DNA of 64,000 bases from positions 742,274,877-742,338,876 of the forward strand of contig NC_133658.1 in the NCBI RefSeq assembly GCF_037893015.1, written 5' to 3'. Positions 53,211-59,412 of the stretch are shown here, one piece after another (the stretch's first letter is position 1; each line of letters begins with the position of its first letter). A program made the translations under genes and the position numbers. Origin of the DNA: Macrotis lagotis (lineage: Eukaryota). The notes under the pieces were generated by a model that made no database searches, was not told where the DNA came from, and was given only the letters and a program-made list of their open reading frames with translations.

Positions 53211-53287
53211 TGTGCGGGTACTGAGACCCTGACCCAAAGCAAAGAGTTAAGATTTAATTCGGTTCTTGCAAGAAGCAGGGCAGTTCC

Positions 53288-53355
<68 letters not shown>

Positions 53356-53638
53356 AGGAAAAGCCAAATTACAGAAGCTGAAGCAGGGTTAAAAAACCCC
53401 ACAAAACCCACACCCCCCCTTCCCCTCTTTTTTTCCACTGACCCTTACAACAATTGGTCAAAAAGAAGGGGGAGGGGGTTTGCCTGTCTGTCTTTGTTTA
53501 CACCTTATATGGTTCGGGTGACATAATTTTTCTAGCTGGAGATCCGGGTTCCCACTGATTCTTGAGAAATAGAAACTGAGACCTATGGCTCAGACCATTT
53601 TAGCACTGTTTCTGGAAAGTCAGCATTTTTGCCCCTCA
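53211..53638 (-). repeat. ERV 3' LTR (for the minus-strand provirus). Contains a (GA)n expansion absent from the other LTR.
   Basis: ~85-90% identical direct repeat of 58987-59412. On the minus strand it reads TG...CA. A purine-rich PPT-like tract (aataagaggagggattg) sits immediately upstream, at 53639-53660 on the minus strand. Confidence 0.75.
53285..53355. repeat. (GA)n microsatellite inside the ERV 3' LTR.
   Basis: gagagagaga x~35. The homologous position in the 5' LTR reads ctctctgagaaagagagc. Confidence 0.95.
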
Positions 53639-53649
53639 CAATCCCTCCT

Positions 53650-55700
53650 CTTATTATATTCTCTGCTGACTTTTCACCCATTCTATCCCCTGTTCTGCTT
53701 GAAGTTTTGTAATAACTCTTCACAATGCTGTTCAATTTCTTCATCTCCACTATCTCGGCTCACAGGAGTCCAACCTTCTCTCCTTAACATTAGCATTCGG
53801 GCTTGGTCTTCAGCCAGAAGTATTTAAGGGAGGATTTTATGAACTGGACTAGTACCCAACCGTATCATGTATGATGTAGAGGCAGGGAAGATTATCAAGA
53901 CTCCTAATACTAGAAATCCATACCATACCAATTGATGCCACCAACTCCCTCCAAACCAAGCCCACCATGAAGTATTAAAGGGAGAGTTCCAAGTCTGGAC
54001 AGGGACATGGGCTATTTTTCTAATTTCTGTGGTGATCTCCTTCACCAATTTTCCATTGTCATCAATTTTCATACCACAAGTGGACAAATTCAATTTTTCA
54101 CAAACACCCCCTTCCTCAGAACAGATAATCTAACACTAATCTGTGTTCTAGTACAGCTTCCCTAGTTTGGGTGATCTCATCTGCCAATAAGTCCAGTGCC
54201 TTTGTTGTTTGATTAGTTATAATTTCCACTACAGCCTGGAGTCTAATGATTCTATTTAACATATAGATCGGTGTCCTGTATCCTCAACTCCTATCTTGTG
54301 CCCACGTAGCAGGGCCACACTCCTTAATTATCCTTTGTGGGGGCCAGACATTCCTCCAACCACTAGCATCTCCAGTTATTGTTAGAGAAGTATCTATACT
54401 CCGTTTCTGGTTTCCTATGTCATCATATAATTGAACACCTAAAGAACTTATTTGATCTGGGAGGAAAAAGAACTTAGATCTGATTAAACCTATATAGCAG
54501 ATCCCTGTCCAATTTATTGGGAGGTGTATATAGGCTGTTTGCCCACATACCCAATAATGCCCTTTTAGAGCCAGATTCTTTTTCTAGAAAATCCTGGTCT
54601 GATTATACTCTGTTAAACAGGGTAATACTGCATATCCTGATCCCCCAGAGGGCCTCTGTCACACCTCATCTGCCCATCATTTTTGTACTGGCATTTCCAC
54701 AAACTCTTTTTTTTTTTTTGAGGATTTTGCAAGGCAAATAGGGTTAAGTGGTTTGCCCAAGACCACACAGCTAGGTAATTATTAAGTGTCTGAGGTTGGA
54801 TTTGAACTCAGGTACTCCTGACTCCAGAGCAGGTGCTCTATCCACTGCGCCACCTAGCTGCCCAATTGTGGCCCTTCTTCCCAGCTACATCTCTCATTGC
54901 AAGGTTCGCCACCTCTATTTCTGGCACTTCAAAGTAATAATGAACCCTTCCCATCCATTGTGGTTTACCCATCTCCAACCTTGGAGCTGAGTAATTGGGG
55001 ACCATTGTTCTGATTATACTTTTTACACTTTGCTATTGATAGGTCACCTTTACACCTTCCCACTCCACTGAGTATATATTGGCAATGTTTCTCATCCATT
55101 TTGCCAGTATGACATCTAACCCGGTGCCATCATTACACTGTACACGGGTCCTATCCCAAGGGCCTGGTACCCCCCCACAATTTGGCACTAATTGTATATT
55201 GTCAACCTTAGCAGGGAAAGTCCACTTGCAACTACTTTGTCCTAAATCAAGTCCCTTCCCAGTTTGGTTAAGGCAATATCTCCCTGTCACAGATTCTGCC
55301 AGTGGCCATTGGTGTTCTTCCTTCTCATTCCAAAATCCAGTTCCACTATGTACTAAAGACTTCTTAGTCAATAACCAAACAGGTTCAAGTGGAACTGGCA
55401 CCCATGGCCACGTGCTCAATCCTTGAGGCCCCCCACAAATCCAACAGTTACATTGAAAATATTAGCAATGGTTTGAATTAAGTTCTGAAAAGTGTTTTCC
55501 TCTTCAAAGAAGGTGTCTAAAACTGAGGCCTGATATAACAATAGGCTCAAATTTAAGAGGGACACTCTCAGAACATGATATCTAAGGCACATTTCTGCAG
55601 GATTGTAGTCTTGACCAGAGCCTAGAAAGCGAAGGGGGCCAACCCCAGGGAATGACACTATAATTGCACCCAGGAATGGATCCCATGTGGAAATCCCTTA
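53650..55700 (-). pseudogene. ERV env remnant (SU and TM), interrupted by a nested SINE at 54708-54864.
   Basis: Minus ORFs 55033-55419 (SU-like, Cys-rich ...CNDGTGLDVILAKW...), 55416-55658 and 53824-54093 (TM-like, hydrophobic, with W-rich ...WWAWFGGSWWHQL...). Confidence 0.5.
54708..54864 (-). mobile_element. MIR-related marsupial SINE nested inside the ERV env region.
   Basis: ttttttttttttgaggattttgcaaggcaaatagggttaagtggtttgcccaagaccacacagctagg...ccactgcgccacctagctgccc. Confidence 0.85.
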
Positions 55701-57183: not shown

Positions 57184-58963
57184 TCCTTTTACTGCCTAGT
57201 TCAGTGCATTCAGTTCATAAGTCTGAGCAGACCATCTTTTTGGAAGGTCTCCCGCTTGACAAACTGTATTTTTGTTCCCATCTATTATAGCATATCCATT
57301 CATCCTTCTTCCTTCCACCACCCTCGAGGATCCATCTACAAACCAATCTTCCTGCCTGGAATGGGTGATTCCTGTAAGTCCTCTCTCACTTTAGTCTGGA
57401 AATTCACTTCCAAACAACTGTGTTCTAATTGCTGAGAATCCTTGGGGGAAGCAGACAGAAACTCCGCTGGATTCTGGTTACGATCCTGAGTTAGTATCAA
57501 ATCATCCCTTTCTAAGAGAATTGTTTCATATTTAATATGTGAGAGTCCATTAACCACCTGTCAGCTTTTTGGTTCAAAATTGTCTTCACCTGATGTGATA
57601 CACTCACAGTAAGACCTAATTTCTATAAAAGGGCCACCGCGTGTCTCTGCCCTCCTCTTATTTATGCTAGTACTCCTAAGGCCACCCCTTCTTCTGAATA
57701 AGTAGAATTGTTTGGCTGGGGAGACAGCAACAGTACTGGGCAGAAATCAAAATAGTTTTTAATTGCTTAAAACTCTCTTTACCTTTTGAATCCCATAATA
57801 TCCTATCTTGGTCTTTCCTCTAATAGATATTCATGCAGTGACTTTGCATAGGAGTTGATCCAACTCTTGCAGTGCCCGATCAATCCTAGAAATTTCCTCC
57901 AAGCCTACTTATCCTTAGGCTTGGGGATATAGATAATACATATATATACATATATATATACATACATACATATATATGTATGTATACACACACACACACA
58001 CACACATTCCTTCAGCCTGGAAGGGATCTACCTAAATATTCTACCTCCCTTTCAGTAAATCGCAACTTCTCCCAGGACACTCTAATCCCTTCTACCCCAA
58101 ATCATTTAATGCTCACTTCTAGAAAGAAGGGGGGATTGGTGTTTCAACTAAAGTTGCAATGATGGTAAAGATGCATAGGGCAGAGGGAGAGCAAGAAGGG
58201 GGTCCCGTGGGTAAGGTGGGACCTCTCTTTCCTCCTTTTTCTCCTCCTGTGTTTTACTTATGAATAGCTGGGTGTCTAGGAGTCAGAAAGCTACATATAG
58301 CTCTTTTGGGGCTCAGTGGGTCCCTGTCATTCACAAATAAATTCAACCTTTGACATACCCAATCTTTGGTGAGGCCACATTCAGGCCAAATTACTCCACC
58401 ACCCAAATTTTATCAACCCATATGAAACAACAATATTTACTTAGCTTTTCTCTTATCCTTACTTTGATATTTTGGTGATTGGTCCCAATATTGCAAATGG
58501 CTGCCTAATGGACTGTCCTTTGGTATTTCCTAATCTCCTGCTGCAGCTTTAACTTCAGATTGTTCTTTTCTTTCCCCCATAATTTAGCATGAGGTCTGTC
58601 CAGTCCAGGACTCAATGAATCATCCTAGTCTCCCTACTAGGCTCACAGTGGAGGGGTCGCCCGCCCACCAGCAGTTGCCCTAGAGTGCTCCACGTTCTGA
58701 TGAGTCAGCTTCTCCTTTGGCTCATCAGATTGCTTACCTCTGGGTTATATGTGTATAAGCTGCCTGGTTGCAACTGCACTGCCGGGTTTCCTTTGGGGAA
58801 ATTTTTGGATCCGTTCCTGGTCTTTACTTCCACTGAGTTACTCTGCTTCGGTTGTTTGTCTCAGGGAGGGGTCTCCACAACCAGCATCAAGGACTGTTGG
58901 AGTAAAACTCTGAACAGGCCTGCCCTTGAGCTGAGTCAGGGGTTGTCTCTCCTTAAGACCACT

Positions 58964-58982
58964 ATCCCGAACGAGCCCCCCA
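58964..58982 (-). promoter_or_regulatory. Retroviral primer binding site complementary to the tRNA-Pro 3' end.
   Basis: Minus strand reads TGGGGGGCTCGTTCGGGAT, versus canonical TGGGGGCTCGTCCGGGAT, 4 nt after the LTR end (...gcaca gttt TGGGGGG...). Confidence 0.7.
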
Positions 58983-58986
58983 AAAC

Positions 58987-59412
58987 TGTGCAGAGTATTG
59001 AGACCCTAACCCAAAATGACTAATCGGAGCCCTCTCAAAGCAGCAGCAGAGTTAAAATTTAATTCAGTTCTTGCAAGAAGTGGGGCAGTTCCTAACTCTC
59101 TGAGAAAGAGAGCAGGAAAATTAGAATTACAGAAGCTGAAGCAGGGTTAAAAACCACAAAGACCACAACCCCCTTCCCCCCACCTCTTTTCTGCTGACCC
59201 TTACAACAATTGGTCAAACTTGATGGTCCAAAGAGAAAGGGGGGGGGGTTGCCTGTCTTTGTTTACACCTTATATAGTTCGGGTGACATAATTTTTCTAG
59301 CTGCAGATCCGGGTTCTTACCCTCACCTGATTCTTGAGAAATAGAAACTGAGACCTATGGCTCAGACTAATTTAGCACTATGTTTCTGAAAAGTCAGCAT
59401 TTTGGGCCCTCA
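58987..59412 (-). repeat. ERV 5' LTR (for the minus-strand provirus).
   Basis: Direct repeat of 53211-53638. Followed on the minus strand by a tRNA-Pro-type primer binding site. Confidence 0.75.

Follow-up and report, generated by a model that had tools for sequence, protein, structure and literature searches.

Gamma-like (class I) endogenous retroviruses are numerous in marsupials and have been characterised well there. In a screen of 19 Australian marsupial genomes, more than 80,000 fragments of endogenous retroviruses (ERVs) were recovered (Harding et al. 2024; PMC11334065). The gammaretroviral clades described there, MEGrv 1-3, are 7.8-8.5 kb in length, carry long terminal repeats (LTRs) of 281-486 nt and have open reading frames (ORFs), some of which are interrupted, and no peramelemorphian genome (bilby, bandicoot) was included in that screen (PMC11334065). 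For murine leukaemia virus (MLV), the primer binding site (PBS) for tRNA-Pro has been published as TTTGGGGGCTCGTCCGGGATTT (PMC4587795). Here, we analyzed a 64,000-nt stretch of the Macrotis lagotis genome (contig NC_133658.1, forward-strand positions 742,274,877 to 742,338,876; hereafter, the window), in which the segment 53211-59412, read on the minus strand, is very probably one old, internally deleted, gammaretrovirus-like (class I) provirus that goes back to an integration in the germ line of an ancestral marsupial. The element is an ordinary fossil ERV of a known, MLV-like (class I) kind and presents nothing that challenges current understanding. Its size and LTR length fit those of MEGrv 1-3 once the deleted portion is added back, a comparison made by description only.

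The element is bounded by two LTRs of the TG...CA type, which were delimited by LTR-LTR alignment, blastn and motif scanning and are both oriented on the minus strand: the 5' LTR at 58987-59412 (426 bp) and the 3' LTR at 53211-53638 (428 bp). A pair of such repeats of about 425 bp had been proposed in the original prediction, which was made from the sequence alone, and was borne out, with the end of the 3' LTR corrected by 2 bp from 53640 to 53638. Blastn pairs the two copies in a 318-bp segment (81.8% identity, E=8e-85) and in a second one of 49 bp (92%). Their alignment extends from one end to the other, with 32 transitions and 19 transversions among 378 aligned sites (86.5% identical), a divergence of p=0.135 and a Kimura two-parameter distance of 0.150 (0.145 without CpG-context sites), and nine indel events. 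In the U5 region of the 5' LTR, 28 bp are absent from the 3' LTR, and the 5' LTR shows a gap of 47 bp opposite a GA array of the 3' LTR. The measured 13.5% agrees with the earlier statement that the LTRs differ by more than 10% and that the provirus is old.

Insertion age was calculated as T=K/2r, which gave ~16 My at 4.5e-9 per site per year, ~28 My at 2.6e-9 and ~72 My at 1e-9; the intermediate value is the monotreme rate quoted in PMC10152393 and is a stand-in only for the host rate. The provirus is old, and its absolute age is soft. The 5' LTR contains the motifs TATATAA (59271-59276), CCAAT (59209-59213) and ATTAAA (59058-59063), whose placement in U3/R would suit the first two as promoter elements and the third as the poly(A) signal. 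In the 3' LTR, the TATA box has decayed to CATATAA.

Four nucleotides past the 5' LTR lies a PBS of the tRNA-Pro type (TGGGGGGCTCGTTCGGGAT; 58964-58982, minus strand). This exact string occurs once in the window, and no match with up to two mismatches was obtained in 100 shuffles. Compared with the PBS-Pro of MLV, TGGGGGCTCGTCCGGGAT, it carries an additional G and a single C>T substitution. A perfect TGGGGGCTCGTCCGGGAT is found at the same place, after an LTR ending in CACA and the spacer GTT, in a provirus of the fat-tailed dunnart, Sminthopsis crassicaudata (CM109184.1, ~6021-12870, with LTRs at ~6021 and ~12566; L002 in what follows), which indicates that the lineage as such is primed by tRNA-Pro and that the resemblance is not due to chance. 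Both the published MLV PBS-Pro (PMC4587795) and L002 thus support the earlier claim of an MLV-like PBS complementary to tRNA-Pro. ARAGORN found no tRNA genes in the whole window, hence no host tRNA-Pro gene to set against the PBS. The untranslated leader occupies 58580-58963 (minus strand), between the PBS and the gag ATG, and includes near 58737 a candidate splice donor (AG/GTAAG) matching the consensus. At the other end, a polypurine tract (AAGAGGAGGGAT; 53641-53652, minus strand), read from the sequence, is placed 2 nt upstream of the 3' LTR.

Between these elements, remnants of the Gag N-terminus, reverse transcriptase (RT), RNase H, integrase and Env are colinear on the minus strand, with both gag and pol incomplete. 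Neither retroviral coding similarity outside 53211-59412 nor a further LTR copy or solo LTR was found within the window.

A Pfam scan of pol in the three minus-strand frames returned RNase_H, rve and Integrase_H2C2 in retroviral order. The RNase H domain was located at 56908-57351 on the minus strand (Pfam match 56932-57351) by Pfam, the PDB search and tblastn; it scored 49.3 bits against a Pfam cutoff of 25.8 and matched RNase H structures of MLV and xenotropic MLV-related virus (XMRV) with E=1e-25 to 1e-18. Downstream, the integrase (55821-56878, minus strand) retains an H2C2 zinc-binding domain (56615-56776), a catalytic core (56277-56567) and a C-terminal domain, spread over two frames with five stops. 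Its Integrase_H2C2 match reached 31.4 bits (34.2 when stitched) and its rve match 38.6 bits (42.4 when stitched), so that both exceeded the curated Pfam cutoffs and the profile evidence upheld the retroviral assignment of pol. Upstream of RNase H, ~215 codons of RT remain at 57456-58101 on the minus strand, covering the end of the palm, the thumb and the connection, with six in-frame stops and two frame changes. When the intact RT ORF of a retroviral relative from an ENA contig (L001) was used in tblastn, amino acids 119-358 were covered, the remnant starting just past YVDD.

In a phmmer search of PDB with the stitched RT-RNase H, the best matches were MLV/XMRV (E=1.3e-38), and the next genus, foamy virus, followed at ~1e-4. 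The alignment to MLV RT spans residues 272-378 and 406-636. The integrase search yielded 276 homologs (best E=7e-109), most of which carry the MLV-type C-terminal domain PF18697, and the closest named homolog was that of the dunnart, with 60% identity. With MLV/XMRV as the top PDB matches and an MLV-type integrase C-terminal domain in the homologs, pol appears to be gammaretrovirus-like. The original prediction had read env, integrase and RNase H on the minus strand, and Pfam, PDB, tblastn and the Env homologs all bore this out; pol and env matched only retroviral proteins (RT-RNase H in PDB, E=1e-38; Env, E down to 6e-138).

The env remnant (53695-55812, minus strand) is nearly full length and comprises a signal peptide, the surface subunit (SU) and the transmembrane subunit (TM), with at least three frame changes and at least four stops; its longest ORF is 128 aa. 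The signal-peptide-like ORF begins at 55812, 5 nt past the pol stop. All 114 matches in the Env homology search were retroviral Env proteins of the TLV_coat family. The best one, the echidna protein P0121, is 47% identical to the query across 83% of its length (E=5.9e-138), and its residues 33-602 of 623 (570 residues) align colinearly with 55505-53695; it was followed by "endogenous retrovirus group 3 member 1 Env-like" proteins of the tammar wallaby (65%) and the wombat (52%). The Pfam TLV_coat profile (cutoff 22.5 bits) gave 19.3 bits at first and 22.7 bits once a longer stitched translation was used.

Alignment with the homologs located the CWIC motif of SU (NCWICGG), a furin-like NQKR/S site and, in TM, a segment resembling the immunosuppressive domain (ISD). 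The TM cysteine motif is VCGKLNLSxCC (Cx7CC) in all homologs, whereas this copy has Cx7CG and has lost the SU-linking cysteine. A reading of this motif as CX7C, of the beta-type, was rejected, as the homologs show Cx7CC and the last cysteine is the one mutated here. To judge by these motifs and matches, Env seems to be a gamma-type, covalently linked protein of the ERV3/HERV-R-like branch and not of the MLV group proper. Kinship of this Env branch with the GP2 proteins of filoviruses and reptarenaviruses is known, and the TM structure matches echo it. When the TM region 53900-54230 was compared with solved structures, the best match was 4n21 ("GP2 Ectodomain", 41 bits), which we take to be GP2 of the reptarenavirus CAS virus. 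Next came Marburg/Ravn and Ebola GP2, ahead of MLV-related TM (28 bits) and syncytins.

At the 5' end of the coding region, a Gag N-terminal remnant of ~95 codons runs from ATG GGG (MGERKEQ...) through 58299-58579 on the minus strand and is broken by three stops or frame changes. The N-terminal part of L001 Gag matches it with 42% identity over 83 aa (E=6e-16), and the blocks IPKDSPLG, KYCCFIW and KDWVCQRLNLFVND are conserved at the same position with both L001 and L002. Pfam and PDB searches with this remnant and with the intact version of the relative gave no match, nor did phmmer of the Gag fragment against 233 proteins. Between the Gag and RT remnants, a deletion-junction zone (58102-58298, minus strand) marks the loss of the rest of gag, the protease and the RT fingers and palm through YVDD. 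This zone showed no homology to the gag, protease or N-terminal RT ORFs of L001, and the breakpoint lies somewhere within it. Sized with typical gammaretroviral gene lengths, the missing piece would amount to ~2.4 kb, which would restore a normal element length of ~8.5 kb. The earlier view that gag, protease and RT are essentially missing holds for the protease, most of gag and the RT fingers and palm, but not for the ~215 RT codons and ~95 Gag codons that remain.

Decay of the reading frames is extensive. Counted over homologous segments, the minimum numbers are 12 in-frame stops and five frame switches in pol and four stops and three frame switches in env, or 16 in-frame stops and eight frame switches in the whole element. 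The CpG observed/expected ratio of the provirus interior is 0.16. Coding capacity is wholly lost, and no frame could give a functional protein. The element has no present protein-coding function, and any residual activity could only be cis-regulatory, via the LTRs.

Three further features have been superimposed on the provirus. Inside SU lies a probably tRNA-derived short interspersed element (SINE) of 157 bp with an A13 tail (54707-54863, minus strand, in the same orientation as the provirus), in which motifs resembling an A-box (TGGCGCAGTGG) and a B-box (GAGTTCAAATCC) are visible. Approximately 21 further copies, 70-91% identical to it, are present on both strands of the window. The earlier report of a SINE inserted in env was borne out. 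Examples of these copies are found at 1438-1576, 18629-18778, 51578-51712, 52272-52410 and 61965-62119, and one other copy forms a 93-nt inverted repeat with the nested one. No target site duplication (TSD) was recognisable around the nested SINE. Neither ARAGORN nor Rfam made a tRNA call on it; as ARAGORN called no tRNA in the window, the SINE is too diverged to be called. A literature search by its consensus sequence gave no useful match.

The second feature is a perfect (GA)31.5 array of 63 bp at 53292-53354, (TC)n in the element orientation, with 100% matches in Tandem Repeats Finder. It is restricted to the 3' LTR, as had been proposed, with 31.5 repeats in place of the 35 given earlier. 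At the corresponding position, the 5' LTR has only a short CTCTCTTTCTC seed, and it is from such a seed, still visible there, that the array grew. An array dating from the integration would by now be expected to carry about 4.6 substitutions in its 63 bp; the purity of this one indicates that it is younger than the integration or has been homogenised by slippage. The third is a compound microsatellite, (AT/ATAC)n plus (AC)10.5, which was detected by Tandem Repeats Finder at 57927-58006 and interrupts RT between reference residues 143 and 166. Rfam miRNA-like matches on the microsatellites (scan of 52-61 kb) were sub-threshold and were discarded as low-complexity artefacts.

With respect to MLV/XMRV, the element shares the tRNA-Pro PBS, an RT connection and RNase H whose nearest solved structures are those of these viruses, a gamma-type Env (SU CXXC, ISD-like segment and TM cysteine motif) and TG...CA LTRs; a 4-bp TSD would be compatible with its flanks. 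It differs from MLV in that its Env lineage has Cx7CC and not Cx6CC, with nearest Envs annotated as ERV3-1-like. Further, its R region appears long (~190 nt from TATA to ATTAAA), and its gag, pro and RT catalytic region are deleted, so that the gag-pro junction, where a gammaretroviral readthrough stop codon would lie, is gone. Relatives of its Env are the ERV3-1 (HERV-R)-like proteins of echidna (LOC119946042), wallaby and wombat: the stitched Env is 47% identical to that of echidna over 83% of its length and 65-68% identical to that of wallaby over the SU C-terminus and TM. The motifs NCWICGG, YW(I/V)CG..AY..LP.NW.G.CY.G and VC.KLN.S.CC.KIDDNG are shared by all. These relatives, whose family name comes from automated annotation, have intact ORFs, in contrast with the shattered copy described here.

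The dunnart provirus L002 resembles the element in its LTR end, spacer and PBS-Pro, its conserved Gag N-terminus, its integrase (60% identical), the NCWICGG motif of its Env and the absence of most of gag-pro-RT. However, pol and env of the two agree at only ~68-72% of nucleotides and their LTRs are unrelated, which places L002 in a different family within the same broad lineage. L002 also differs in its deletion limits, the RT thumb being removed as well, and in having a truncated TM. Its LTRs are ~99% identical over 300 nt and it is accordingly young, though defective, and was possibly mobilised in trans. Use of L001 and L002 as same-family references was rejected, since their pol and env are only ~66-72% identical at the nucleotide level and their LTRs show no resemblance to those of the element. 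Both were employed as protein-level guides and were too distant to fix the deletion breakpoint.

Several observations weigh against the identification of the segment as an old, deleted gammaretroviral provirus. There is no clean TSD to prove a single integration event: the candidate copies are GAGG on the plus strand (CCTC in the element orientation) at 59413-59416 on the upstream side and GTGG on the plus strand at 53207-53210 on the downstream side, and they match at three of four bases, a degree of agreement (at least three of four) with a chance probability of ~0.05. The gammaretrovirus-like label is drawn from best hits, from the PBS and from the motifs of Env, and the integrase C-terminal profile MLVIN_C reaches 17 bits in this copy, below its Pfam cutoff of 29.2. 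The term matrix for the Gag remnant would follow from position, without Pfam or PDB support. In addition, the size of the deletion was based on gene lengths typical of gammaretroviruses and not on a full-length copy of the same family, and the age is conditional on a neutral rate not measured in this host. With regard to the flanks, the original prediction had denied them the status of a clean TSD; they are indeed imperfect, yet GTGG and GAGG appear compatible with a decayed gammaretroviral 4-bp TSD. Its overall interpretation was supported, neither of the refuting outcomes that it had named (LTRs failing to align, pol or env matching non-retroviral proteins) being observed, and the corrections were minor, concerning RT, the Gag remnant, the GA count, the LTR end, the TSD and the Env branch.

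The site of insertion was also analyzed. The window has a GC content of 38% and a CpG observed/expected ratio of 0.17, as in vertebrate DNA, and its many SINE copies, LINE-1 fragments and a BAG3-like frame nearest to that of the greater bilby are in keeping with a marsupial, probably peramelemorphian, host. A scan of the 64 kb detected only two CpG islands, at 52451-53100 and 60151-61200 (GC 64-73%, CpG observed/expected 0.67-0.81). The provirus is located in the gap between the two, at a distance of 111 bp on one side and ~740 bp on the other. Were the ERV removed, less than 1 kb would separate the islands, and an insertion into a promoter-type region is thereby suggested. MLV-like viruses prefer promoter-proximal, CpG-island-rich integration sites, and the location fits this preference as a single observation.

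The most probable history begins, roughly 16-70 million years ago depending on the neutral rate, with a class I retrovirus that entered the germ line of a marsupial ancestor in the minus orientation and was then fixed as a provirus. One internal deletion of ~2.4 kb would have removed gag (p12, capsid and nucleocapsid), the protease and the RT fingers and palm, either during reverse transcription before integration or by a later genomic deletion. After integration, neutral decay (CpG observed/expected 0.16) would have been accompanied by insertion of the tRNA-derived SINE into env, and the (GA)n array in the 3' LTR and the AT/AC array in RT would have grown by replication slippage.

The order of deletion and integration in this history can be reversed from what a passive genomic loss implies: the element could be a copy of a non-autonomous variant that already lacked gag-pro-RT and relied on a helper virus for packaging and reverse transcription in trans, which predicts other genomic copies sharing the same junction. 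All the cis elements for such mobilisation are kept, namely both LTRs, the PBS, the leader, the gag start and the polypurine tract, and gammaretroviral packaging signals lie at the gag start. L002, without most of gag-pro-RT yet with LTRs ~99% identical, shows that deleted forms can be young in the lineage. Against this, the 64 kb contain just this one copy and no solo LTR, the different deletion limits of L002 (RT thumb also gone) point to an independent event, and tens of millions of years of random genomic deletion would suffice to explain the loss. We thus regard loss before integration as possible, at perhaps a minority chance, and the wider proposal built on it as more doubtful still. 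That proposal envisages an uncatalogued peramelemorphian class I ERV family with an ERV3-like Env, whose deleted form was trans-mobilised and whose LTRs act in cis-regulation between the two halves of a CpG-island promoter.

The same imperfect flanks (GTGG/GAGG), together with the high LTR divergence and its nine indel events including the 28-bp and 47-bp gaps, might be expected if two proviruses of one family had recombined by inter-element homologous recombination, leaving LTRs and flanks from different integrations. This is very unlikely: the flanks agree at three of four bases, the interior keeps its colinear order with one PBS and one polypurine tract, each in its proper place, no second copy is nearby and the indels are as expected for an old element. 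Domestication of env as a syncytin-like host gene, now or in the past, would have precedent in that intact Env ORFs are annotated among its relatives in echidna, wallaby and wombat, and proteins named as syncytins among those in other taxa. This copy, with at least three frame changes and at least four stops, a SINE in SU, the SU-linking cysteine lost and no ORF longer than 128 aa, makes such a role scarcely credible, and co-option was rejected on the stops, the frameshifts and the nested SINE. A provirus inserted once, deleted internally and then left to decay is the reading that we retain.

Other features of the window were recorded. A BAG3-like open frame of 592 aa lies at 36558-38336 on the minus strand, with AATAAA and a short A-run ~780 nt past its stop. 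Residues 11-581 of greater bilby BAG3 align to it in one uninterrupted tblastn segment at 89% identity, other marsupials coming next, and the single segment indicates a copy without introns; a BAG domain is present and no WW-domain match was obtained in this frame. It looks like a 5'-truncated processed BAG3 retrocopy that has retained a long open frame. LINE-1 remnants on the plus strand were found at 39207-39785 and 42939-44829, with a coiled-coil ORF1-like frame and ORF2 pieces (RVT_1, 71.5 bits). Approximately 360-450 bp outside the 5' LTR are a G17 homopolymer (59771-59787) and a (TA)15 tract (59829-59859). The ORF at 14227-14790 on the plus strand is an artefact with a long poly-Leu run, produced by a simple repeat of the CTG/CTT type.

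The finding has little importance beyond annotation. It provides a clean, datable class I ERV in a marsupial lineage outside the published 19-genome screen, in which events can be placed in relative order by means of the nested SINE and the microsatellites, and it links marsupial ERVs to the ERV3-like Env lineage of echidna, wallaby and wombat.

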